A stretch of 64,000 nt of DNA, taken from assembly GCA_963750165.1 (NCBI GenBank), contig CAVVPN010000001.1, forward strand, positions 128,001-192,000. Reading direction: 5' to 3'. This document shows positions 41,830 through 56,993 of the stretch, in pieces. The stretch is from an uncultured Gemmataceae bacterium. Its GTDB lineage: Bacteria; Planctomycetota; Planctomycetia; Gemmatales; Gemmataceae. The notes under the pieces were generated by a model. The model worked only from the letters and a program-made list of their open reading frames with translations, was not told the origin of the DNA and did not search any database. Position 1 is the stretch's first letter. The number at the start of each line of letters is the position of its first letter. Made by a program: the position numbers and the translations under genes.

Positions 41830-41914
41830 TGCCGGAGACAGGACTTGAACCTGCACGACCATTACAGTCACCAGGCCCTCAACCTGGCGCGTCTGCCAAT
41901 TCCGCCACTCCGGC
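41830..41914 (-). tRNA. tRNA-Leu(GAG)
   Basis: Reverse complement GCCGGAGTGGCGGAATTGGCAGACGCGCCAGGTTGAGGGCCTGGTGACTGTAATGGTCGTGCAGGTTCAAGTCCTGTCTCCGGCA; long variable arm, no encoded CCA. Confidence 0.95.
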
Positions 41915-43142: not shown

Positions 43143-43192
43143 CAAGTCCAAATCGCACATTTTCCACGGAGTTTCCTGCCTTTTCCTGCCCT
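43143..43192 (+). repeat. 50-bp direct repeat, copy 1
   Basis: CAAGTCCAAATCGCACATTTTCCACGGAGTTTCCTGCCTTTTCCTGCCCT, identical to 53228-53277. Confidence 0.9.
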
Positions 43193-43291
43193 GCTATCCG
43201 CCTTCAGCCACCGTGAATCTGCGGAATCTGTTTCTCCTCGATCGACGTGACCGGAGCGCGCTATGGACATCAGCTGCTCTGAAAATCCCCT

Positions 43292-43500
43292 TCAGGCGGG
43301 TGCCGGTTCGAGGGTAACTCGATGTCCCAACTTCTCCAGGCGGTTGACCAGTTGGCGGGTCAGGAGTTCCGGTTCCAGCCGGTCCAGGAAGTCCGCACCC
43401 AGTTCCTCGTAGCTCGTGCCGCGCTTCGGCAGGTGGTAGACGATCATCAGCAACGAGTGCCCCAAGGCCACCAGCCCAGCGCCTTCTTGCGTCCGCGCCA
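43292..43500 (-). pseudogene. C-terminal remnant of IS110-family transposase
   Basis: VALGHSLLMIVYHL...YEELGADFLDR...LVNRLEKLGHRVTL. Confidence 0.75.
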
Positions 43501-44892
43501 TCAGGACCTTGCGGGCACGGCGGCGAAGAGCGCGGCGAGCCCTTCGGCCATCGTCGGGTGAGTCAGGGTCGCATCGCGCAGGGCCACGTAGGGCAGCCCC
43601 GCGGTCATGGCGACCTGGACGATTGTCATGACCGCGCCGGCCTCAAAGCTGAACGCGGTGAAGCCGAGGATACGGTCGCTGTCGGCAGCGACCAGGGCCT
43701 TGAAAAAGCCGCGCGGCTCGGAGAGCGTCCGGGTGCGGAGGATTGCCGTCGCGGACAGTTTCGCCAGCCGGTAGGCGATCCCGCACCCCTTCGCCTCCGA
43801 CTCGTTCAGGCCGACTCTGGCCAGTTCGGGGTCAGTGAACAGGCAGAAGGGAACGAGGCGGCCGGCCGTCGTGCGGTCGATGCCGACGAGGTTGTTGTGG
43901 ACCACGCGGACGTCGTCGTCGGCGACATGCGTGAAGTGGGGGCTGCCGGCGCAGTCTCCCACCGCCCAGACGCCGGGGGCCGTGGTCCGCAGGCGCTCAT
44001 CGACCTTAACGAAACCCCGTTCGTCCCGCTCCACCCCGGCGTACTCCAGGCCGATGCCGTCGGTGTTCGGCGTCCGGCCGCCCGCGACCAGCAGGTCCGA
44101 CCCCTCGATCGTTTCCGCAGTCCCGCCCCGCGTGAGGCGCAGCCTCACGGCGGTGCCGGACTGCCCCTCCACGCGCTCGACGTGCGCGCCCGTGCGGACC
44201 TCAATCCCCTCATCCAGGAAGAGGTCGCGTAGGGCCTCCGAGACGTCGCGATCCTCCCGATGGGCCAGGGTGTCGTTGCGCTCGACGACCGTCACCCGGC
44301 TGCCGAAGCGCCGGAGGGCCTGGGCGAATTCGAGGCCGACGTAGCCGCCACCCAGAACGAGCAGGTGCTCCGGGACTCGGTCCAGTTCGAGCGTCTCGAT
44401 GGGGGTCATCGGCCGGGCCTCGGCCAGACCAGGGATCGGCTCGATCCGCGCCCGGGAACCCGTACTGATCACGACGACATCGCCCCGCAGCCGGCGCGTT
44501 GGGCCGTCGGTGGCCCTCACCTCTATCGTCCTGGGGCCGACGAATCGGCCCTGCCCCATGACCAGTTCCGCGCCGCTCTCCCGATACCTCCGGTGATTCA
44601 GCGCGACCATCCCCTCGACCATCTTCCGCTTTCCTTCGCGGACGGCGGTCATCTCGACCTTCCAGTCTCCGTGGGCGATGCCAAATTCGCAACCCCTGCG
44701 GAAATAGGCGGCGACCTTCGCGCTGTGGATCAAATACTTGCTCGGTAGACAGGCGATGCTAGGGCAGGAGCCCGTGACGTACTGCCGCTCGACGACCGCT
44801 GTGCGTTTGCCCTGCGCGGCCAGCGACCAGGCCAAGAACCTGCCCCTCCCGCTGCCGAGCACCACCAGGTCGTATTCCTCGGGTTGTGACAC
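43501..44892 (-). CDS. Pyridine nucleotide-disulfide oxidoreductase (RclA/MerA-like, no C-terminal Cys pair)
   Basis: GSCPSIACLPSK redox disulfide, GGGYVG, GRTPN, WAVGD, THPTMAE. Confidence 0.9.
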   Translation of the reverse strand: MSQPEEYDLVVLGSGRGRFLAWSLAAQGKRTAVVERQYVTGSCPSIACLPSKYLIHSAKVAAYFRRGCEFGIAHGDWKVEMTAVREGKRKMVEGMVALNHRRYRESGAELVMGQGRFVGPRTIEVRATDGPTRRLRGDVVVISTGSRARIEPIPGLAEARPMTPIETLELDRVPEHLLVLGGGYVGLEFAQALRRFGSRVTVVERNDTLAHREDRDVSEALRDLFLDEGIEVRTGAHVERVEGQSGTAVRLRLTRGGTAETIEGSDLLVAGGRTPNTDGIGLEYAGVERDERGFVKVDERLRTTAPGVWAVGDCAGSPHFTHVADDDVRVVHNNLVGIDRTTAGRLVPFCLFTDPELARVGLNESEAKGCGIAYRLAKLSATAILRTRTLSEPRGFFKALVAADSDRILGFTAFSFEAGAVMTIVQVAMTAGLPYVALRDATLTHPTMAEGLAALFAAVPARS

Positions 44893-44915
44893 GGTTTTCC
44901 CCTTCGCGTTGATGC

Positions 44916-45317
44916 CTATCGGGGATCCACTGCCATGGCGGCGACAATTTCGACTTCGACCAGGAACTCAGGTCGGACGAGTTGGGGGATGACCAGGAGC
45001 ATGGAGGCGGGCCGCGCGTCGCCCAGGAAGCGCGACCGCACCCTGGCGTAGGCCGGGATGTCCTCGGCGCGCGTCAGATACTGGGTGACCTTGACGATGT
45101 CGCCGACGGTCATGCCGACCCGCTCCAGCAAGCTGATGACATGCTGCCAGGAGCGCTCGGCCTGGCCCGCGACGCCACCGGGAAGTTCGCCGGTCGTCGA
45201 AAGGCCGGGAGTTCCGGACATCAACAACCATCGCAGGCCGGGCTTAACCTCGATGGCGTCGCTGTAGGCCCCGATCTGTTTGGCAACGCCAAGGTCATGG
45301 ACGGCGTGCGTCGTCAT
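44916..45317 (-). CDS. RidA/YjgF family protein
   Basis: YSDA, SGT, DIVKVTQYL, RPASML, LVEVEIVA. Confidence 0.9.
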   Translation of the reverse strand: MTTHAVHDLGVAKQIGAYSDAIEVKPGLRWLLMSGTPGLSTTGELPGGVAGQAERSWQHVISLLERVGMTVGDIVKVTQYLTRAEDIPAYARVRSRFLGDARPASMLLVIPQLVRPEFLVEVEIVAAMAVDPR

Positions 45318-45380
45318 GGCACCTCCTCTGAGGGAACTGACACCGGGGCGAATTTGTTCTCCAATCGGCCCTCGATTTCT

Positions 45381-45881
45381 CTACCTTGCCTGGTCTTGCG
45401 GTGGCCCCGCGCGGGCTGTCCCCAGTGCCTCGCCCGCCGTGTACAGGGCGGTTCCCAGCAGGACAACGTCCTTGAGCAAGAACTGCCCCGGTAGGGCCGA
45501 CAATGCCGGGAAGCCACCCAGGCTTGCCTCCCAGCCCGGCGTGGTGATCAGGAAGCTCAGCGTGGTCAGGAACATTCCCGCCGCAAGGAGACTGCCTAGC
45601 GCCGAACCCCTCGGCCACACAGGACGCAGCGCGACCAGCACCCCGAGGGCGATCTCGATCACACCCAGCACCGCGGCGAACTGACCCACGCTCAGGACGC
45701 GGTAAACCCAGGCCAGCGGGGGGCTGTTCGCCACCAGCGGTCGGACGCCTCCGGCCTCGTAGGCCGTGAACTTCATTCCGCCGATCCAGAGTAGCACGAC
45801 CACCAGCCCGTAACGGGAGGCGTGTGTGCCGATCATCTTCAGTCGATCACTCAGCATCAAACTCGGCTCCGGTTGGGGCAA
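45381..45881 (-). CDS. RclC/YkgB (DUF417) inner-membrane protein
   Basis: WIGGMKFTAYEA..PLVANSP, TLSFLITTPG, GQFLLKDVVL. Confidence 0.9.
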   Translation of the reverse strand: MPQPEPSLMLSDRLKMIGTHASRYGLVVVLLWIGGMKFTAYEAGGVRPLVANSPPLAWVYRVLSVGQFAAVLGVIEIALGVLVALRPVWPRGSALGSLLAAGMFLTTLSFLITTPGWEASLGGFPALSALPGQFLLKDVVLLGTALYTAGEALGTARAGPPQDQAR

Positions 45882-45889
45882 GGCAGCCG

Positions 45890-46513
45890 TCAGTCGCCAC
45901 GGGATTTCTGCTTCTCAAGCACCGGGTAGCCGCGGACGTACACCCAGTCGTCTTTCTTGGCCGGCACGTGACACACCCGACAGTCGGTCTTGTAGTCCGT
46001 GGTCACGTTGCGCGCGGGCTCCTTGGCCAGGAACAGGGCCCAGCCCCAGCCGTCGCCCCACAGGTCGTTGCCGGGGAAGCGACCCTTGGCGTCCTTGATC
46101 ATCACGAACCAGAGCTTGATGCCCGTGGCTCGGTGCGCCTGCCCCGTGGTGAGCCGCTCCGAATCGACCCCGGTGACTTCCTTCACCAACACCGCGCCGT
46201 CAGGGAACTTGCCGTCCCGTTGATACGCCCGGACGTCCTCCGGCCGCGCGTAGGTGATGTGCAACTCATCGACTGGTTGGTTCGGTTTCGTGGCCACGGC
46301 GTACGTGCCCACATACTGGAACGTCTTGCGGTAATCGGTCGGCCGCGTAATGCCGCCGTCCTTCGTGACGAAGGGCGAGAAGTCGCCGGCCGCCTGGGCG
46401 GGCCGCTTGTCCGGCAGCGCCGACTGTGACTCGCCGGGCGCGATCGTCGCCGCGACGAGCGCCGTCAAGGCCAGGCAGGCGGCGGCCAGCCGGCAGAGAA
46501 TCCTGGTATTCAT
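45890..46513 (-). CDS. Cytochrome P460 family protein (paralog B)
   Basis: Signal peptide, PTDYR, FPDGAVLVKE, MIKD, GWGW, CRVCH, YPVL. Confidence 0.88.
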   Translation of the reverse strand: MNTRILCRLAAACLALTALVAATIAPGESQSALPDKRPAQAAGDFSPFVTKDGGITRPTDYRKTFQYVGTYAVATKPNQPVDELHITYARPEDVRAYQRDGKFPDGAVLVKEVTGVDSERLTTGQAHRATGIKLWFVMIKDAKGRFPGNDLWGDGWGWALFLAKEPARNVTTDYKTDCRVCHVPAKKDDWVYVRGYPVLEKQKSRGD

Positions 46514-46590
46514 GGGGTGCGTCTCCTGGGTTTGGGGCAGGGGACGCGGGGCGGCCCGGACGAGTCGGCCGCACCGCGCTCCGGGCCACC

Positions 46591-47196
46591 TTATTTCGAG
46601 CGCGGGGCCGCCGCACGCAGGACGGGGTAGTACTGACTGAAGACGAAGTCCTTCGCGGCGTTGGTCTGGTGACAACTGTTGCACGCGAAGGCGGCGTTCT
46701 TCGCCACCTCCTTTTTGAGGGGGAGCTTGTGGCCGAAGCTGAAGTAAGCCCAGTTGCCGGGCTCGTCCTTGAAGCGCTTCGAGTCCTTGATGGACGCCTC
46801 CAGGCCGGTGAAGTCGCCCATGAAGTAACCCTTGCCGCTGGTCGCCTTCTTGGTTCCGACGCTGATGAGATCCTTGACGATGACGGTGCCGTCGCGGAAC
46901 TCGCCGGTCTTTTGGTAGTGGGCGTAGCTTTCGGGGTCGATGTAGACCGCGTGGAACTCGGGGAACGGGGCCTCGCCTCCGTTGAGTTCGTTGGGGGTCA
47001 AAGGCGTGCCGATGTACACCCATTGGCGATAGCCGACCGGCTGTTTGAGCTTCCCGTCAGGGGTGTATTCGACCAGCGCCTTCTTCTGGCCGCCGCCGGA
47101 CTGCGGGGCAGCCCCGGCCAGCACATACGACAGTCCGGCGACCCCGACCAGGATCGCGACGCCCGCGATCACTCGTGACCTGTTCGATCCGAGCAT
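46591..47196 (-). CDS. Cytochrome P460 (paralog A, Nitrosomonas CytL-like)
   Basis: TPNELNGGEAPF, VYIDPESY, TGEFRDGTVIVK, GYFMGDFTGLEASIKDSKRF, EPGNWA, CNSCH, YYPVLRAA. Confidence 0.92.
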   Translation of the reverse strand: MLGSNRSRVIAGVAILVGVAGLSYVLAGAAPQSGGGQKKALVEYTPDGKLKQPVGYRQWVYIGTPLTPNELNGGEAPFPEFHAVYIDPESYAHYQKTGEFRDGTVIVKDLISVGTKKATSGKGYFMGDFTGLEASIKDSKRFKDEPGNWAYFSFGHKLPLKKEVAKNAAFACNSCHQTNAAKDFVFSQYYPVLRAAAPRSK

Positions 47197-47457: not shown

Positions 47458-48093
47458 ATGCACGACGAACCCACCTCAGCCGTCGTCAAGCGCTACCTGG
47501 ATGAGCTTGCCGACGGTTCGCCCGCCGAGCCAATCATCCGGGCCCTGCTGGCCCGGGCCGTTCACCGGTTGCAGCAGTTGTGCAGTTCGCTGCTCTTCCG
47601 GAGTTACCCGCGGCTGACGCAGCCGCCGCTGAACCTGCAGGCGGACGAGATGCTCGGCGCCTTGGTGGAGCGCCTGCTCAAGGCCCTGCGTGAAGCACGC
47701 CCCGCGACCGTCCGACAATTCCTCGCTTTGGCCTCCCAACACGTGCGCTGGGAGTTGAATGACCTGGCCCGCCGCCTAGATGAACAGCCCGCCGCCGTGG
47801 AACTGCTCGACGGGGGCGTACCGGCGCCGGCCAGTAGCGACTCGGGCCTCACCCCGGTGGCCCGCCGTATGATCGAGGCGATCGACCGCCTGCCGGAGGG
47901 CGAGCGCGAGGCGTTCGACCTGGTGCGCATTCAGGGGATGACGCAGGCTGAGGCCGCCCAGGTCCTCGGCGTCACGGTGTTGACCGTCAAGCGGCGCCTG
48001 AACCGCTGCATGCGCGTGCTGACCGCAACGCTCCGAGACCTCGCGCCGGGCGGCGCGTCTGCCCCGGCCGTGCGTGGAGGGTCTGCATCATGA
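47458..48093 (+). CDS. ECF sigma-70 factor
   Basis: AIDRLPEGEREAFDLVRIQGMTQAEAAQVLGVTVLTVKRRL sigma4; overlaps kinase start (ATGA). Confidence 0.88.
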   Translation: MHDEPTSAVVKRYLDELADGSPAEPIIRALLARAVHRLQQLCSSLLFRSYPRLTQPPLNLQADEMLGALVERLLKALREARPATVRQFLALASQHVRWELNDLARRLDEQPAAVELLDGGVPAPASSDSGLTPVARRMIEAIDRLPEGEREAFDLVRIQGMTQAEAAQVLGVTVLTVKRRLNRCMRVLTATLRDLAPGGASAPAVRGGSAS

Positions 48094-51000
48094 CCGACGA
48101 CCCGCGCGTGCAACAGCTACTCGACGAATTGTTCGATTCCCACGTCACGCCGGAAGAAGTCTGCGGCTCCTGCCCCGAGTTGCTGCCCGAGGTCCGCGAC
48201 CAATGGCGGCAGATGTGTCGCGTCCGGGACGAACTCGACGCGCTGCTCCCGCCGCCCGACGCGGAGTTGGACCCGACGGAGGCACCGCCGGGCGGCGGCG
48301 CCCTGCCCCAGATCCCTGGCTATGAAGTCCAGGAGGTGTTGGGCCACGGCGGAATGGGCATCGTCTACAAAGCCCGACACCTGCACCTCAACCGCGCGGT
48401 CGCCCTGAAGATGCTGCTCGCCGGCGCGGGCCCCCAACCGGAGTACCGGCAACGCTTCTTGCGGGAAGCGGAAGCGGTGGCGTGCTTGCGGCATCCGAAC
48501 ATCGTCCAGGTCCACGACATCGGCAACCAGAACGGCCAACCCTACTTCACGATGGAGTTTGTCGAGGGCGGCAACCTGGCCCAGAAATTGGCGGGCGCGC
48601 CCCAACCTCCCAAACAAGCCGCCGCGCTGCTGGCGACCCTGGCCGAGGCCGTGCAGGCGGCCCACCAGAGCGGTATCGTGCATCGGGATCTGAAGCCGGC
48701 GAACGTCCTCCTTACCGCCGACGGCACGCCCAAGATCAGCGACTTCGGGCTGGCCCGGCGGTTGGACGGCGCGGCCGGCCTCACTCGGACCGGCACCGCG
48801 CTGGGGACGCCGAGCTACATGGCCCCCGAGCAAGCCGAAGCCAGGCCGCTCACGGTGGGGCCTGCCGTCGATATTTATGCTTTGGGGGCCATCCTGTACG
48901 AACTGCTGACCGGCCGACCGCCGTTCCGGGCGGAAACGGCGGTGGAAACCGTCCGTCAGTTGACCTCCCAGGACCCGGTGCCGCCGTCGCGGCTCAACGG
49001 TAAGGTGCCCCGCGACCTGGAGACCGTCTGCCTCAAGTGCCTCCACAAGATCCCCGCCCGCCGCTACGCCAGCGCCCGGGATTTGGCCGACGACCTCCAT
49101 CGCTTCCTGGAGGGCAAGCCAGTCCGCGCCCGTCCGGTCGGGGCCGCCGAGCGCACCGTGAAGTGGGCAAGGCGGCGGCCGGCGGCGGCGGCGCTGCTGA
49201 GCGCGGCGCTGCTGGTCATGATCGGGTCGGCGGCCGAGACCGGCCTTTGGCTGCGACAGCAGGAAGCCGACCGCAATGAGGCGAAGGCTCAACGAGAGGG
49301 GAAGGCGCGTGAGGTTATCGAGAATGCACTGCGGCGAGCGGACGACCTCCGGCGGGAGGAGCGGTGGGCAGAGGCGCTACACGTCTTGACGGAGGCATCG
49401 ACCCAGTTCCCGGAAACCGGCTCGCCGCCGTTAGAGGTCCGGCTCCGGCAGGCGCAGTCGGACCTCCGAATCGCCGCCGACCTTGAGCGCGTTCGGGAGA
49501 ACAGTCCGCTCCAGCCCGACGGCGGAATCGACTACTCGCAGTGGGCGAAGGCATACCAGGAGGCGTTTGATCGGGTGGGGCTCCGGACCGGCGACGACCC
49601 GGAAACGGTCGCGGCTTACATGCGGGCCTCTGCGATCCGCAACCAACTCGTGGCCGCCGCCGACAACCGGGCGGTCGTGGAGTTCATGGTGAACGACGGG
49701 CCGCTGGTGGAGCGACTCTTGCGGATCGCCCGACTGGCCGATCCGGAGCCGCGCTGGCGGGGCCGATTCCGCGACCCGGCCGTCTGGCGCGGCCGGGAGC
49801 GACTCCTTCAGCTCGCCGCCGACGCATTCAACACCTCGCCGCCCCCGCCGGGGCATCAACTGTCGTTGCTCGGACTGTTGCTGATGAGGGCGAAGGCTTT
49901 TAGCCAGAGCGCTGAGTTGCTGGGCGAGGCGTGTCGTCGCCAACCGAACAACTTCTGGCTCAACCGCGAGATGGGCACTGCGCTGTTCAGGCAAGCCCGG
50001 TTCCTGGAGTCGGCCGCCTACCGCCGCGCCGCGTTGGCGTTGCGGCCGGACAACGCCGGGGCCCATGAGGCGCTCGGCATGACCTTGTTCCGCACCGGCC
50101 AGACCGATGCCGCCCTTGCCGCGTACCGCCGTGCTGTTGAGTTGTCCCCCACCGGTCGTTCGTCCCGTACGCGCCTCGTGGGCGCCCTGGCGGAAGCCGG
50201 CTACTGGAAGGAGGCGGAGGCCGAGTGTCGCCGCGCCCTCGAGATCGACCCTGCCAACTACCTCGCGCCCAGCCGTCTGGCCTTGGTTCTTTGGGAACAC
50301 CGACGGCATGAGGACGCGATCGTCCTGTCTCGCAAGGTGATCGAGATCAACCCCGCCGTCGTCGAAGCGTACACTTATCTCGGCTATTCCTTGATGCGGA
50401 TGGGCCGACACGACGACGCCGTGACGGCCTTGCGCAAAGTGACGGAGTTGACCCCGAAGAACGCCAATGTTCGCCAGCAGTTGGCCCATGGACTGGCCGA
50501 GATCGGATGTCCTGAGGAAGCCATCACCCAGCTGCAAAGCGCGAGCGCCCTGATGCCCAACATCTCGTTCTACAGGGAATTGGGCACGCTGCTCCGGGCG
50601 CAGGGCCGGCCGGAGGCGGCGGCCGCTGCCTACCGGAAGGCTGCGAACCTCGACCCTCAAATCGGCGTGGTCTGGGACGAACTGGCGGCGTCGTTGCTCG
50701 ACCTGGGTCGCTTCGCCGAAGCCCGCGCGGCGACGCAACGTTCGCTAGATCTGCCCGCGACAGCAGCGGACCGCCGAGCGCAGCAGCGACAACGGGACCT
50801 CTGCGACGCGCTGCTCTCCGTCGATGCCGACCTCCCTGCAATCCTCGCAGGTAAAGAGCGGCCGAGGAAGGTATCCACCCAGCTGGCTCTGGCAGAGTGG
50901 TGCCTGAAGCACAGGCGCCTGCCGGCCACGGCCGTGGGTTTTTATGACGCGGCCCTCGCGGCGAAACCGTCCCTCATCGACGACCTGGAGGCCGGCCATC

Positions 51001-51956
51001 GGTTTGACGCCGCCTGTGCGGCCGCCGCCGGCAGTGGAGTCGGCAAGGACGTCGCCGAATTTGACGGCCAGCGGCGGGCGGCGCTGCGCCGGCAGGCGCT
51101 CAACTGGTTGACGGCCGAGTACGACGCCTGGGCGGCACGACACCGCGTCGGCAAACGAGGCGACCGGACGGTCGTGGCGACGGCCATGCGCTCCTGGCGG
51201 CAGAACAAGGACCTGGCCGGGGTTCGCGAAGAGCAAGCGTTGGCCAAATTGCCCCTGGAGGAGCGACGATCCTGGCAAACGCTTTGGGCCAACGTGGCGA
51301 CGCTCGCGGCGCGTGACCCGGTCGCCTTGTTCGACCAGGCCCGAGTGCATGTCAGCCGGCGGGAGTGGGGGAAGGCGGCCGAGTGTTACGCCGCGGCGTT
51401 CGATCTGGAGCCTACGGAAAACGGCGAACTCTGGTTCGAGTATGCCGCGGCGCAACTGCTCGCAGGGGACCGGCCGGGCTACCGCCGAACGTGCGCTCAG
51501 ATGCTGGCCCGCTGTCAACCGAAGGGGCCGATGCGTCCCTACCTCGTCGCCCGCGCCTGTACGCTGGCGCCCGATTCGGCCGATGACCCGGAACTGCCGG
51601 GCCGGCTGTCTTCCCGCGAACTGCTGCAAAGTCGGAATGCGTATTGGTCGCTCACCGAACAGGCCGCCCTGGCTTTCCGGGCGGGTCAGTTTCAGGAGGC
51701 CGTGCCGCTGCTGGAAGGCAGCATCACGGCCGACGGGCGGCCCGGCCGGGCGGTGGTGAACTGGTTGTGGCTGGCGCTCGTCTACCACAGGACGGGCAAG
51801 AACGACGAAGCACTGCGGCAGTTGGACAAGGCCGCCGGTTGGTTGGACCAACAGGGCGGTCGGATGCCGCTCGAAACCTCCGCCATGGGAATGCACCGGC
51901 ACAACTGGCTCGAAGCCAACGTACTGCTACAGGAGGCGGAGGGGCTGCTTCGATAG
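48090..51956 (+). CDS. Ser/Thr protein kinase with TM segment and C-terminal TPR array
   Basis: GHGGMG, VALK, HRDLKPAN, DFG, GTPSYMAPE; many TPR repeats. Confidence 0.93.
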   Translation: MTDDPRVQQLLDELFDSHVTPEEVCGSCPELLPEVRDQWRQMCRVRDELDALLPPPDAELDPTEAPPGGGALPQIPGYEVQEVLGHGGMGIVYKARHLHLNRAVALKMLLAGAGPQPEYRQRFLREAEAVACLRHPNIVQVHDIGNQNGQPYFTMEFVEGGNLAQKLAGAPQPPKQAAALLATLAEAVQAAHQSGIVHRDLKPANVLLTADGTPKISDFGLARRLDGAAGLTRTGTALGTPSYMAPEQAEARPLTVGPAVDIYALGAILYELLTGRPPFRAETAVETVRQLTSQDPVPPSRLNGKVPRDLETVCLKCLHKIPARRYASARDLADDLHRFLEGKPVRARPVGAAERTVKWARRRPAAAALLSAALLVMIGSAAETGLWLRQQEADRNEAKAQREGKAREVIENALRRADDLRREERWAEALHVLTEASTQFPETGSPPLEVRLRQAQSDLRIAADLERVRENSPLQPDGGIDYSQWAKAYQEAFDRVGLRTGDDPETVAAYMRASAIRNQLVAAADNRAVVEFMVNDGPLVERLLRIARLADPEPRWRGRFRDPAVWRGRERLLQLAADAFNTSPPPPGHQLSLLGLLLMRAKAFSQSAELLGEACRRQPNNFWLNREMGTALFRQARFLESAAYRRAALALRPDNAGAHEALGMTLFRTGQTDAALAAYRRAVELSPTGRSSRTRLVGALAEAGYWKEAEAECRRALEIDPANYLAPSRLALVLWEHRRHEDAIVLSRKVIEINPAVVEAYTYLGYSLMRMGRHDDAVTALRKVTELTPKNANVRQQLAHGLAEIGCPEEAITQLQSASALMPNISFYRELGTLLRAQGRPEAAAAAYRKAANLDPQIGVVWDELAASLLDLGRFAEARAATQRSLDLPATAADRRAQQRQRDLCDALLSVDADLPAILAGKERPRKVSTQLALAEWCLKHRRLPATAVGFYDAALAAKPSLIDDLEAGHRFDAACAAAAGSGVGKDVAEFDGQRRAALRRQALNWLTAEYDAWAARHRVGKRGDRTVVATAMRSWRQNKDLAGVREEQALAKLPLEERRSWQTLWANVATLAARDPVALFDQARVHVSRREWGKAAECYAAAFDLEPTENGELWFEYAAAQLLAGDRPGYRRTCAQMLARCQPKGPMRPYLVARACTLAPDSADDPELPGRLSSRELLQSRNAYWSLTEQAALAFRAGQFQEAVPLLEGSITADGRPGRAVVNWLWLALVYHRTGKNDEALRQLDKAAGWLDQQGGRMPLETSAMGMHRHNWLEANVLLQEAEGLLR

Positions 51957-51986: not shown

Positions 51987-52853
51987 TCATCCGCCCCGGT
52001 CGCCCGGCGAGAATTTTACCGAGCCGGGGCTGATGAGCGACTGAGTCTCTTTGATCAGCGCGGAGAGTTTCAGGACGGTCAGCGTGAACTCCGTCAGTTG
52101 CTCGCAACCGTCGGGACAGACCCAGACGTAGCAATCCCCGCTCCTCCCGACGTAGCAGGCGTCTCTCGGGACATCCCGGCAGCGACCAACACGGAACCAG
52201 CCGGGCCGGACCCGGGCCAGGTCGCGTTGGATGGACTCGATCTTGCGGCAAACAACCCTTGCCAGTGGGGAGCGGTCACCCGGGGCACATGCCTGCGTAC
52301 AGACGGATTCGTCGTTCGTCGTGACGATACGGGCCTCCAGGTCGCGGGCGTTCTTGCTGGCTCCGCCCTGGAACTCGTAGAACCAGGCAGACTCGTTCCT
52401 GAGATCGGCGTTGGGGGCGAACTGATCCTTCAACTCGTGAGCCAGTTCATCGAGGAAATCGGGCGACGGCATGTCGGGGAAGCCGTGGGCGCGGCGATAG
52501 GCGATGAGGAGGAGCCGCAACTCAGTGGCGTCAATAACAGGCTCCATCCCCCATTGGGCGACGGCGGTCCGCGAGCCGAACAGTTGGGGTTGGGTCGAAG
52601 CCGGGGGGCCGAGGTCTACCAACGCCCCTCCCGAGATCGAATCGGTGAGCTGGGAAGTCCCTTCCTTGAGATGTACGTGCCAGGGGAGGGCCGATGGGTT
52701 GACGGCGGACTGGGCGAGGTTGTTGAGAACCTGCTGGTATTGCAACTCGGGCAGGGTACTCGCCTGGTGGATCGTCCGCTGTCGGAGTCGCGTCGTCGTA
52801 CAGCCGACCGCACACCACAAACAGGCGGCGAGGAGGAGCCAGGTGAGGCGCAT
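51987..52853 (-). CDS. Putative lipoprotein
   Basis: MRLTWLLLAACLWCAVGC lipobox, LQYQQVLNNLA, Cys-rich C-terminus. Confidence 0.7.
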   Translation of the reverse strand: MRLTWLLLAACLWCAVGCTTTRLRQRTIHQASTLPELQYQQVLNNLAQSAVNPSALPWHVHLKEGTSQLTDSISGGALVDLGPPASTQPQLFGSRTAVAQWGMEPVIDATELRLLLIAYRRAHGFPDMPSPDFLDELAHELKDQFAPNADLRNESAWFYEFQGGASKNARDLEARIVTTNDESVCTQACAPGDRSPLARVVCRKIESIQRDLARVRPGWFRVGRCRDVPRDACYVGRSGDCYVWVCPDGCEQLTEFTLTVLKLSALIKETQSLISPGSVKFSPGDRGG

Positions 52854-53227
52854 GGTCACTCTACAACTCCCACTTTTGGGGTAATGTAGTGGTTGTATCG
52901 GCAAACGCTGGTCTAAACATGAAGGAGATGGGTGCGAACACTGCAACGCGAGTCGGTTCGACACGCTGACATCAATTTGGCTCTTGGTGTTGCGTGCTTC
53001 GGTCTTATCGTCCGAAGTAACCAAGGTGATTCGCACAACCCACTCCGGTCCGACACACCGACTGCAATTTGGCTCTTGGCGTTGCGCGCTTCGGGCTGAT
53101 CGACATGCGCGCCCAAGTCGAAGTCTTTAGCGCGCGGAGGACCGGCACGCAGGCGCAAGTCTTGAAGTGGAACGGCAGCCGGTGCCCTTACCTTCAAAGC
53201 CGCGTCTCAGACCGAGCGCGCCTGCCT

Positions 53228-53277
53228 CAAGTCCAAATCGCACATTTTCCACGGAGTTTCCTGCCTTTTCCTGCCCT
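53228..53277 (+). repeat. 50-bp direct repeat, copy 2
   Basis: Identical to 43143-43192; similarity extends to GCCTTCAGCC downstream. Confidence 0.9.
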
Positions 53278-53678
53278 TGTTTCCTGCCTTCAGCCGCCGA
53301 GATGCGGATTTTCCGCATGCCTTCCCCTGCCTTGCTCTCCCGTCGCCGTCGCCTCGCCGTATGGGGTGGTCAGAAAGGCCGCACCGGCAGGACGCCGGTA
53401 CAATCGCGGCCTGGCCACCCCAGAAGGCGGGGCAAAGGCGGCGGTGTGGCATGGCATTTGCGCCATCCTTGAGCCTGAGCTGAGCCGGTGGGGTCGGTCT
53501 GACTTGTGGCCTGCTACGTGCGGGCTATTCGTGTGCCCAGTAGTCTCCCAGCAACTACCCGTCACAGCATAGGCAGAACAGATGTTCATGCCTTCGGGCA
53601 TTGCCGCTTGCTGCTTGCCAGGAGTTGTTTTCGACGCTGGCGAACGAATTTTTCCGCGAACGGCAACAGTCCTGCCTG

Positions 53679-54065
53679 TCAGGCAAACAACTCAAGGAGC
53701 GTGGCGACGACCCGGTCAGCCTCCTTTGGGCTGATCGCCCCCAGTTTCTTCAGCAGGCGCTCCTTGTCGAGGGTGCGGATTTGGTCGAGGGCGACTTGCC
53801 CCGCCCGCTTGTGAAATTGGACATTTACGCGGGAGGGGTATGGACGTGGCACGGTGGTCATGGGCGCGACGATGACGGTGCGCAGGAAGTCGTTCAGCTC
53901 GTCGGGCGACACGATGAGACATGGTCTCGTCTTGCGGATTTCAGCCCCCAATGTAGGATCGAGCGAGACCAGATAGACCTCGAAGCGTTTGGGGGAAACG
54001 GCCGAGATGCCTCGCCTGGCTCGCCGTTCCCTTGCGGCGGCTTTCACTCCGCCTGCCATTGCCAC
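53679..54065 (-). CDS. mazF: PemK/MazF family toxin
   Basis: VSLDPTLGAEIRKTRPCLIVSP, VAPMTT, DQIRTLDKERL. Confidence 0.92.
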   Translation of the reverse strand: MAMAGGVKAAARERRARRGISAVSPKRFEVYLVSLDPTLGAEIRKTRPCLIVSPDELNDFLRTVIVAPMTTVPRPYPSRVNVQFHKRAGQVALDQIRTLDKERLLKKLGAISPKEADRVVATLLELFA

Positions 54066-54298
54066 TCGTCCGCGTCCCAGATGTTAGCAAGGGTGCTGGG
54101 TATCAACGGGGTCTCGTCCTGGCTGGCCTGGGAAAAGGCCCTTGCCCATCCTTCACGGGACCTGCGGGCTGGGGCGATCAGCAGCCCCTCGGGCCGCACT
54201 GTGATTTCGACAGTTCGGGTCAGGCCGGACTGCTCGATGAGGGCCTTGGGGATGCGGACGCCTCGGGAGTTGCCGATAGGGATAAGCTCAGATTTCAT
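54044..54298 (-). CDS. mazE: AbrB/MazE family antitoxin
   Basis: IGNSRGVRIPK, C-terminal WDADEWQW. Confidence 0.9.
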   Translation of the reverse strand: MKSELIPIGNSRGVRIPKALIEQSGLTRTVEITVRPEGLLIAPARRSREGWARAFSQASQDETPLIPSTLANIWDADEWQWQAE

Positions 54299-54323
54299 AC
54301 CGCCAGCTCAAGCTATTTCAGAG

Positions 54324-54362
54324 ATGTAATTACATTATAATTACTTTTACGCGGCTTGTCAA
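54324..54362 (-). promoter_or_regulatory. Consensus sigma70 promoter of mazEF with palindromic operator
   Basis: Minus strand TTGACA (54362-54357), 17 bp, TATAAT (54339-54334); perfect palindrome ATGTAATTACAT at 54324-54335. Confidence 0.85.
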
Positions 54363-54432
54363 AGAAAGGGTGTATCCTTTCCCGAACAGGCACCCGGCGG
54401 CAGGGCCACCGACTATCGCGAACCTGCGGGAT

Positions 54433-55950
54433 CTGAACTGTCGCACGCTTCCATGAACAGACGAACACCGATAGTGTCACGGGGCTGTCGCAGAAAGAGA
54501 GAGGGGTTCCTCCTAAGTTTGTGCATAGGTTCTCAAGCCATGCACTCGCCGGAAGGAGCCCCTCATGTGGCTGATGATAGCTTCTCTCCAGCCCATCGTC
54601 CAAGCCCTCGCCCCGGCCTTCACCCTGCCCTCGTTCCACACCCACTGCCAACTCGTGCTCGGCTGGGTGATGTGCCTGGGCCAGCACCGCCTCTGTCGCG
54701 TCGCCGACACCGCCCAACCCCAAGACTTGCGGGACCATTCCCGGCGCCACGGCCTGGACACCACCTACAACTTCTTTGCGCGCTCCGCCTGGACCGTGAC
54801 CGGGTTGGCCTACCACGTCGCCGTCCTCATCCTGACGCGCCTCCACCTGGGCGGCACCATCACGCTGTTGGTGGACGACACCCTGGCCCACAAGCGCGGC
54901 AAGCACGTCTGGGGCCTCGGCTGGTTCCGCGATGCCGTCGCCTCGACCCGCAAACGCACCGCCACGGCCGCGGGGCACAACTGGGTGGTCGTCGCCGTCG
55001 CCGTCTGCCTGCCCTTCGCGAACGCCCCGATCCTGGCGTTGCCCTTGCTGGCCCGGTTGCACCGGCCCGGCCAGGCGCAGCCGTCCTGCCCACTGCTGGC
55101 GCGCGCCTGCTCGCCGAAGTGCTGGCCTGGTTCCCCGGCCGGCGCTTTACCCTGGTGGCCGACGGCGCTTACGCGGCCCAAGCGCTGCTGGCGGACCTGG
55201 ACGAGCGCGTGACCTTCGTCGGCCGGTTGCGCGGCGACGCGGCCGTGTACGACCCGCGTCTGCCTCAGGCCAAGCCCGGCCGGCGCGGCCGCAAGGCGCA
55301 GAAGGGGCCGCGTCTGCCCAACCCCAAAGCAGCCGCCGCCAAGGCCGACCGTAAGCGCGTGGCCACCGGGGACTGGGTGTGGCAGGCGGTGACGGTGACC
55401 GTCTACGGGGAGCAGCGCGTCCTGCGGGCGTTCGCCTACCGGGCGGTGTGGCCGCGGGTGTTGGGGTTGCGGCCGGTGCAGGTGGTGGTGGTGCGCGACC
55501 CGGACGGGAAGTTGGACGATGCCTACCTGTTCACGACCGACGTGCGTGCGGACGTGGGGTGGGTGATTACGCAGTTCGCCTGGCGCTGGTCCATTGAGGT
55601 ACTGTTCCGGGCGAGCAAACAGGTGCTGGACCTCGAGGCGCCACAACACTACAGTCGGGAAGCGGTGGAGAAGGTGGCGCCGTGGGTGTGGTCGTTGCAG
55701 AGCGTCGTGATGGTGTGGTATCTTACCGCCGGTCGGCAGTTGCCGGAGGCGGAGGAATTGCGCAAGTGATGGGACCCTGGGAGAGTGAATGGTCGTTGCG
55801 TCATATGGTTGCCGTGTTGCGGCGGGCGACTTTGAACGCCCTAATTAAACCCAAGTCGGCCGATGCAACGGAACTCCTGAAACTCATCGAAGCGCTGAAA
55901 AACTGCGTAAATCTCGCGGTTTGAGCACTCGGAAAAGTGCGACTGCCAAG
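54433..55950 (+). mobile_element. IS701-family element; transposase 54565..55924 with frameshifts near 55105 and 55765
   Basis: Imperfect TIRs CTGAACTGTCGCACGCTTCC / GGAAAAGTGCGACTGCCAAG, 4-bp GGAT duplication; LVDDTL, VADGAY, RWSIEVLFR DDE motifs. Confidence 0.85.
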
Positions 55951-55978
55951 GGATGGTCTATGCAGGAAAGAGTACGCC

Positions 55979-56993
55979 CTATCCGTTCCGGACATGGTTG
56001 ATGCGATTTTCAAGGTCTGTCAAGGCCGCAAGTATGTCCTCAAACGGGGTGGGATCGGCGAGATACATGTCCCGCATCGCCTGGTAATCGCCGTGCAGCG
56101 CCAGCAGCCGCCCGGGCGGTGGGAGAAGGCGGAACGTCCCCGGTTTCGCCCGGTCGTAGTTCGCCCACGAACTGCCAAAGAACTGGCTCTTCCATGCCAC
56201 GACCCGATCTCGGAGGTCGTGTTGGTCGATGGCCCCGCTCGCGGTGGGGTGCTTTGCCAGAGCCGCCGTATCCGCATAATGGCGGGAGAACCGGTCGGGC
56301 ATTGGTTTCTCGGCCGGCCGGTGGTATTCCATATGAAGGATCGTAGCCTTCTCCCAGAAACTGCGCTCGACTTCCAGGGCTACGACTTCGCACTGCCAGT
56401 CGGAAAATGCGGCAGGCAGGACATCGGCAACCCACGGCCGTATTGGGTGGCGGCCGACCGGCTGTTGGTCGGTAAGAGAACCGAACTCCAGTTTTACCGA
56501 GCGTTTGAGGTACTCGAATCCCGCCGCCTGCGACGACGGGTAGTGGAACAGGAGCACCGGCGAGTTCGTGTGGGCGTCCGTCAGGAACTCGAACCATCCG
56601 CCATCCCGCTTCCCAAGCACTGCCTCCACGACCGCTTCCAGAGCGGGCGCGATCTGCGTCTTCACCGCTTGCGCAGGCGGTCTCCGCCCTTGTCATCCAC
56701 TTGTTTGCCTGGTTCCGGCTCGTCCCCGCCTCCGGCAGGTTCAGAAACTCAGGCGACAGCGACAGGTCGATGTCTTCTGAGAACCGCTCGATGACGCCGA
56801 ACACCTTCGAGAGCGATGTGCCGCCCTTGAACACCAGGCTGCCGGCGAACTCTGACCCGAACAGCAGACCGAGAATCCAGCACACCCAGAAGTCTTTTTC
56901 CAGGAGCACCGGGGATAAGTTCCGGCGTGTCGCTGCCTGCTCGATGTAAAGGCGGCGCTCGTCGGCAGGTAGTCCAAGGAATCCCAGCCTCAT
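55979..56993 (-). CDS. AbiEii-type nucleotidyltransferase toxin; frameshift near 56670
   Basis: EKDFWV, FKGGTSLSKVFGVIERFSEDID, FWEKATILH, SRHYAD. Confidence 0.9.

Follow-up and report, generated by a model that had tools for sequence, protein, structure and literature searches.

Cytochromes P460 oxidize hydroxylamine (NH2OH), and this activity requires a lysine cross-linked to the haem and a precisely placed carboxylate, the distal base (Smith et al., PMC6457333; PMC11928373). In P460 dimers a loop from one subunit reaches the haem of the other (PMC11928373). Assays of the enzymes rely on a dye as the oxidant (PMC6457333), and the role of P460s that lack the base, like that of P460s outside nitrifiers, has been called open (PMC6457333; the 2025 review PMC11928373). 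Genes for P460 and for the related cytochrome c′-beta were not neighbours in 14 organisms (Adams et al., PMC6427953). Here we describe a locus in which two different P460 genes stand side by side. It lies in a 64,000-nucleotide stretch (the window, G000:C1:128001-192000) of the 9.6-Mb, 93% complete genome of an uncultured Gemmataceae bacterium, where a first-pass annotation had proposed an operon of two hydroxylamine-oxidizing P460s with RclC, RidA and an RclA-like reductase. The genes are real, their labels were overstated, and the pair adds a variant to the P460 family.

The five co-oriented, closely spaced genes were found in the order proposed, as intact open reading frames (ORFs) on the minus strand:

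46591..47196, minus strand: P460-A (A), exported cytochrome P460 of the Nitrosomonas europaea type, 201 amino acids; PF16694 E 3e-30; signal peptide judged by eye
45890..46513, minus strand: P460-B (B), exported monohaem protein of the P460 fold, 207 amino acids; PF16694 E 1.6e-24
45381..45881, minus strand: DUF417 inner-membrane protein, relative of RclC/RcrB, 166 amino acids from TTG, with an ATG at 45857; PF04224 E 4.4e-32
44916..45317, minus strand: Rid-family protein without the catalytic arginine, 133 amino acids; PF01042
43501..44892, minus strand: class I flavoprotein disulfide reductase, 463 amino acids; CxxxxC and HxxxxE motifs

From A to the reductase, the intergenic gaps are 77, 8 (32 if the DUF417 protein starts at the ATG), 63 and 23 nucleotides, and a purine-rich stretch resembling a ribosome-binding site precedes four of the five starts. 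All Pfam matches (PF16694 twice, PF04224, PF01042 and the Pyr_redox families) were above cut-off. The Nei-Gojobori ratio of nonsynonymous to synonymous change (dN/dS) against orthologues was 0.15–0.33 for all five, similar to other pairs, which ruled out a decaying cassette; the genes are real and under purifying selection. From the spacing, we infer that they are co-transcribed.

P460-A closely resembles N. europaea P460 (NeP460; PDB 2je2, E 8.2e-59), scores 105.6 bits against a PF16694 cut-off of 27, and carries its haem-binding CxxCH at residues 172-176 (C172, C175, H176). Its Lys108 aligns with the cross-link lysine in the VKEL motif of NeP460 and of the Nitrosomonas sp. AL212 protein (NsP460), Glu133 with the distal base (the site mutated in AL212 A131E), and Phe78 with the capping Phe of both; His82 occupies the position of NeP460 Arg44, as in AL212 P460. 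Among 110 A-type matches from protein searches, Phe78, His82 and Lys108 were present in all 110 and the Glu in 109. Since A keeps both the cross-link Lys and the distal Glu, we predict that it is an active, periplasmic hydroxylamine oxidase, and for A the proposed enzymatic role is thus retained.

The same role does not extend to P460-B, which is 34% identical to A and has Phe136 at the base site, so that the distal carboxylate is absent, while keeping Lys111 and a CxxCH at 178-182. B is distant from every solved member of the family (best PDB match, E 1.4e-10); its structural model matched cytochrome c′-beta 7s5o with Z 11.0 (root-mean-square deviation 3.1, 132 aligned residues) and both 6amg and 2je2 with Z 10.3. 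Its nearest relatives among the matches listed are records labelled Planctomycetota. The invariance of the Phe in 136 B genes derived from loci is partly circular, because the scan pattern contained that residue; it was therefore rechecked on 184 B-type matches from protein searches, in which the Lys was present in 183 and the Phe in 182. The combination of a Phe at the base site with a retained cross-link Lys marks B as neither an active P460 nor a c′-beta, and we predict from these residues that it is a non-catalytic partner. A Phe class of P460 is mentioned by Smith et al. (PMC6457333), with no role assigned and not as a partner.

We then asked how regularly the two genes occur together. 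Loci were gathered by similarity to B from genomes (at least 79) and metagenomes (at least 80), giving 159 that were analyzed with their neighbours mapped; a locus was called close when its B was at least 60% identical to that of the window. The pair was examined in the 80 loci whose flanks each measured 1.5 kb or more (17 close, 63 distant), and the whole cassette in the 61 with 4 kb on both sides (14 close, 47 distant). The loci are related, some come from one genome and the samples overlap in part, so the counts are not independent. An A gene lay within 4.5 kb of B in all 17 close loci and in 47 of the 63 distant ones. Planctomycete loci mostly have the order A-B and acidobacterial ones B-A, and the linkage spans, by record label, Planctomycetota, Acidobacteriota, Alphaproteobacteria and others. 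In a sample of 252 host-family genomes, ten matched A, seven of them at 57% identity or more, and six of these seven carried B within 2 kb of A (one contig was just 4 kb). A PF16694 match at E 1e-10 was present in 35 of 401 genomes of a phylum sample, and a B-type gene in 2 of 251 genomes sampled around an acidobacterial locus. Taken together, the B-based, family and phylum samples indicate that B is usually accompanied by A, whereas A occurs independently of B. The conserved unit is therefore the P460 pair, with B optional; the first-pass annotation had overlooked both the difference in kind between the P460s and the conservation of their pairing. A correlation of pairwise distances of linked A and B (r 0.86, 87 pairs) was not used as evidence, as shared ancestry explains it. 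We found no report of linked P460 pairs, or of a P460 with DUF417, in a literature search with thin coverage of subscription journals; sequence lists in the supplements of PMC6457333 and PMC6427953 could be relevant to the Phe class.

Natural fusions provide a second line of evidence. Among 41 longer relatives of B, 33 joined B to a dihaem cytochrome c, and B-cupredoxin, B-A and A-B-cytochrome c fusions were found once each; the remaining five were apparent read-through artefacts. Fusions that unite the two domains are P0149 and P0166 (B-A), P0177 (A-B) and P0162 (A-B-cytochrome c). We also searched with a B-A fusion as the query and a length floor of 216 residues. Of the best 120 of 1029 matches, 118 were new and comprised 70 proteins with A alone, 19 with A or A-A plus a further haem domain, 5 with B alone, 21 with B plus one cytochrome c, and single cases of B-A, of A-B and of a weak P460 domain with B. 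In this set, the class I cytochrome c mark was present in 21 of 26 B-only proteins, a figure inflated by the length floor, which drops most unfused B proteins, versus 1 of 89 A-only proteins. A predicted fold of the A-B fusion P0177 (22-row alignment; predicted local distance difference test score 70, predicted template modelling score 0.62) was not informative about domain packing, and an alignment that combined P0149 with single-domain rows was discarded, having collapsed onto a single domain.

We tentatively favour the reading, to which we give a little less than an even chance, that A oxidizes external hydroxylamine in the periplasm and that B is both its partner and its electron exit. A would form the Lys-haem cross-link, bind NH2OH arriving from outside the cell, and make nitric oxide (NO) or nitrous oxide (N2O), as N. 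europaea P460 does. The hydroxylamine is taken to be external because no HAO-type gene was matched in G000, in a search whose two positive controls were both detected; AMO had no match in G000 either, but its positive control was likewise silent. G000 does carry haem c maturation genes. A and B would form a mixed dimer, which the inter-subunit loop of P460 dimers makes plausible, and the haem of B would pass electrons on to a cytochrome c. In the window, this module would head a loose, mobile oxidant-stress cassette in which the DUF417 protein may quench oxidants at the inner membrane, the reductase may use NADH on a small anionic oxidant or a disulfide, and the Rid protein may have a non-deaminase role, the three being interchangeable cargo and not fixed members of one pathway. 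A broader proposal, that a heterodimeric P460 made of a catalytic subunit and a Phe-capped exit subunit wired to cytochrome c or cupredoxin is widespread, feeds hydroxylamine oxidation into the respiration of non-nitrifiers and is controlled in many planctomycetes by a Crp-family regulator bearing Cys and His, seems doubtful to us. If it holds, P460 enzymes would gain their missing redox partner, and heterotrophs would count as a further, diffuse source of NO and N2O.

Several observations weigh against the electron-exit reading, besides the inflated share of fused B proteins. The B of the window has no fused carrier, and a cytochrome c gene is absent from the cassette. An A-type gene without B in about 15 kb was found in 11 of the 13 other phylum-sample genomes (B was nearby in 2), and 16 of the 63 distant loci have no A near B; an obligate heterodimer is thus unsupported. 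The base site of 113 locus-derived A genes is Glu in 60, Asp in 49, Ala in 3 and Gly in 1. The Asp genes are all distant relatives, and Asp, like Ala, Gln and Leu, was inactive at this site in the AL212 protein (PMC6457333; for Asp also PMC11928373). Finally, N. europaea P460 binds NH2OH weakly, with a dissociation constant (Kd) of 9 mM (PMC6457333), so that the natural substrate may differ.

These last two points would also fit a pair that oxidizes another substrate, for example an N-hydroxy compound from a partner hydrolase, with N2O not being the product. Smith et al. themselves suggest other substrates (PMC6457333), and beta-propeller genes (in 36 plus 7 loci) and urease alpha-subunit genes (in 15) are found near the pair. 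The A of the window, however, has retained the Glu and by sequence ranks with the nearest relatives of NeP460, the cassette has no propeller gene, and no urease was matched in G000; we consider a different substrate distinctly unlikely here. The residue at the NeP460 Arg44 position raises another possibility. Loss of Arg44 blocks spontaneous cross-linking, the cross-link requires peroxide (PMC11928373), and His replaces the Arg in all 113 locus-derived A genes, so that B might be a maturation helper giving oxidizing equivalents for the peroxide-dependent Lys-haem cross-link of A. AL212 P460 has a His there yet is cross-linked (PMC11928373), and many A genes occur without B, which makes this role very improbable.

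Alternatively, B might form a homodimer of its own that binds a small ligand such as NO, in the manner of c′-beta or the inactive AL212 P460, and, co-expressed with A, catches the NO made by A. Its Phe would make the pocket hydrophobic, and P460 variants without the base retain binding of NO and NH2OH (PMC6457333); the predicted structure lies as near to c′-beta as to P460 by the Z scores given above, and in 16 of the 63 distant loci B has no A nearby. A pure gas buffer would have no need of a fused class I cytochrome c or cupredoxin, and P460 and c′-beta are not neighbours in the 14 organisms of PMC6427953, whereas A and B are. On balance we regard this role as unlikely, and retain electron exit as the working assignment of B.

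Further P460 arrangements were seen in the same searches. At L027, L030, L040 and L126, where two A genes cluster with one B, additional A copies carry Ala or Gly at the base site and may represent an inactive state, like that of AL212 P460, that arose next to the pair. Seventeen proteins (among P0167-P0184) combine two A domains with a third haem domain, and at L219 a double-A gene lies between globin genes. L197-L201 (G418, G401, G391, G177 and G100) encode two-domain PF16694 proteins about 22% identical to A or B; their hosts belong to one family of the phylum, and two of these genomes are rich in HAO-type genes. G000 itself has a third, solitary P460-family gene (G000:C3:3243941-3244357, L012), 38% identical to A. 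A lactonase-like beta-propeller gene follows the B-A pair in 36 mostly acidobacterial loci (for example L063:9225-10592; L073, L075, L083, L179). A different one, weakly similar to the first (E 9e-9) and present in 7 planctomycete loci, stands between A and B in several planctomycetes (L045:6389-7786; L039, L043, L046, L047). In the mostly acidobacterial loci, the B-A pair is often followed by a urease operon as well (alpha-subunit genes in 15 loci), and at L122 urease and nickel-transport genes surround a close A-B pair.

The names RclC, RidA and RclA were not borne out, each protein scoring far below the NCBIfam cut-off. The reductase reached 335 of 740 bits for RclA (best model PRK06370-type, 377 of 629). 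Its best solved relatives are Escherichia coli RclA 6kgy (E 7.6e-76) and Har 8uub (E 9.3e-69), structures identified as such in PMC11107202, and it shares CxxxxC (CPSIAC) and HxxxxE (HPTMAE) with both. Its identity to RclA is 34%, versus 47–49% among proven homologues (PMC9335216), and it has retained a segment of about 19 residues absent from RclA. Where RclA and Streptococcus pneumoniae Har have Lys13-Ala-Gly-Lys16, two active-site lysines described as a feature of hypothiocyanous acid (HOSCN) reductases (PMC11107202), the reductase has Arg16-Gly-Arg18 and a one-residue deletion, both common to the orthologues at L024, L034 and L110; the occurrence of its GSGRGRF start in these three loci ruled out an assembly error. 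The Arg-Gly-Arg hints at an anionic substrate. Two further close paralogues and one frameshifted copy in G000 each lie near kinase or ECF (extracytoplasmic function sigma factor) genes with other cargo and without P460.

The DUF417 protein scored 90.9 against an RclC cut-off of 275; it is 39% identical to E. coli RclC, lacks the 24-residue loop of the latter, and has as neighbours P460-B, Rid and an ECF/kinase pair and not the RclR/RclB or RcrR/RcrA of the known contexts. It keeps Lys43 and Lys128 of uropathogenic E. coli RcrB, both essential for quenching of hypochlorous acid (HOCl) by RcrB (10.64898/2026.03.12.711259), as K37 and K137 (aligned to K33 and K118 when RcrB is numbered from its RefSeq start, which is shorter by ten residues than the numbering in that paper), and RcrB Trp44 is replaced by Phe38, as in RclC. 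The Rid protein (TIGR00004 score 43.6, cut-off 106.25) shares the Rid fold family and the Tyr and Glu sites with RidA and has Ser105 in place of Arg105 (PAS versus PAR in HMMER alignments to 2b33, 2dyy and 6izh; a MAFFT alignment in which this segment was shifted was set aside). Arg105 is necessary for imine hydrolysis (PMC4433059) and contributes to chaperone activation of E. coli RidA (PMC9126958). The protein appears to belong with the Rid proteins that lack this Arg (Rid4-7, or the minority of RidA with Ser there), for which imine hydrolysis is not expected (PMC4433059), and the RidA chemistry proposed earlier is not supported.

The first-pass annotation further suggested that the five genes act as one operon-encoded system against stress of the chloramine or hydroxylamine type, and neighbourhood analysis bears on this directly. 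DUF417 and a close reductase each occurred in 7 of the 14 close loci, a close ECF sigma factor in 5, Rid in 4 and a close kinase in 3; the 47 distant loci had DUF417 in 5, Rid in 1 and no close reductase. All five genes co-occurred in two close loci (L024 and L110), with other genes interposed and never in the contiguous order of the window; the full set was missing from the other 12 close loci and from all 47 distant ones, and only G000 had it among the 7 host-family genomes with a close P460-A. DUF417, Rid and reductase genes were found in none of 11 solo-A loci, so their link to the pair exceeds chance. An association with oxidant-stress genes in related planctomycetes thus stands, and the retained RcrB lysines and a reductase subclade with two basic residues at the Lys13/Lys16 sites speak for the proposal, but a conserved operon is not supported. 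The Rid protein lacks the arginine needed for deamination and full chaperone activity, RcrB Trp44 is Phe, close reductase paralogues sit in other G000 cassettes without P460, and chloramine chemistry of P460 was not found in the literature consulted. We judge one co-adapted operon to be quite improbable, and conclude that the three downstream genes, although enriched near the pair, are cargo that it can do without. Other cargo beside the pair includes quinone reductases, alpha/beta hydrolases, MsrA/B, peroxiredoxin, CMD, beta-propellers and urease.

Regulation appears to differ among loci. Of 35 planctomycete-type loci, 14 have a perfect TGTCA-N6-TGACA palindrome in the 600 nucleotides upstream of A (examples are L023:7175, L024:7220, L033:3899 and L046:5550), and elsewhere in such loci it occurs once in 386,381 nucleotides. 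Its outer halves match the CooA consensus (PMC545781). A Crp-family gene with C-x5-C-x-H-x-H before the helix-turn-helix is present in 13 loci, the nearest solved relative of its product being NtcA. In the window, no such palindrome lies before A within two mismatches, and tblastn found no match to the Crp-family regulator in G000; no sigma-70 promoter match and no excess of terminators were seen. It is possible that the divergent ECF sigma factor and kinase regulate the cassette here, and kinase-linked ECF groups have been described (PMC7826278). These genes and the other features of the block are:

47458..48093, plus strand: divergent ECF sigma factor; TIGR02937 above cut-off
48090..51956, plus strand: Ser/Thr kinase with TPR repeats, putative partner of the ECF sigma factor
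51987..52853, minus strand: lipoprotein-like ORF of 288 amino acids, cassette companion; no Pfam match
43143..43199, plus strand: 57-nucleotide direct repeat, left copy, bracketing a 10-kb block; 95% identical to the right copy
53228..53284, plus strand: 57-nucleotide direct repeat, right copy; 95% identical to the left copy

A family with an N-terminus resembling that of the lipoprotein-like ORF was recognized by eye at L023, L024, L027, L036 and L041. Relatives of the bracketing repeat occur on G000 contigs C3 and C12. The block is flanked by tRNA-Leu, MazEF, a DDE_5 transposase and an AbiEii gene (41830-41914; 53679-56665), which together with the direct repeats suggests a mobile island. 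Directly behind the reductase stop is a 68-codon remnant (43292-43498, minus strand) with copies elsewhere in G000; it has no Pfam match and resembles the end of an IS110-type transposase. A different 57-nucleotide repeat, with two copies 92 nucleotides apart, lies at 52954-53102 of the window; it has relatives on several contigs, one of them about 0.5 kb before the reductase paralogue on C4.

A linked, sometimes fused pair with cytochrome c on B bears on what P460s do when they lack the base or occur outside nitrifiers. It also calls for caution, in that not every P460 gene can be counted as an N2O source and DUF417, Rid and reductase genes should not be named RclC, RidA and RclA by default. 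The earlier suggestion that this set is an N2O source is weak at a global scale, given a pair in 6 of 252 host-family genomes, a B-type gene in 2 of 251, and millimolar binding of NH2OH.

Compared with known systems, P460-A shares the CxxCH, cross-link Lys, distal Glu and capping Phe with NeP460 (2je2/2je3) and NsP460 (6amg), and P460-B shares with them the fold, the CxxCH and the Lys. These P460s are described as homodimers or single-gene products (PMC11928373), whereas here a second, divergent P460 gene is linked and sometimes fused, and the paired P460s stand in a genome without a HAO match. The c′-beta proteins (McCP-beta 6hih, NeCP-beta 7s5o, TtCP-beta 7ead) have the fold in common with B (Z 9.8–11.0) and, like B, no distal carboxylate; they have Phe or Met in place of the cross-link Lys (PMC11928373), which B keeps almost without exception. 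As P460 and c′-beta were not neighbours in the organisms covered by Adams et al., the A-B linkage differs from the known case of two paralogues.

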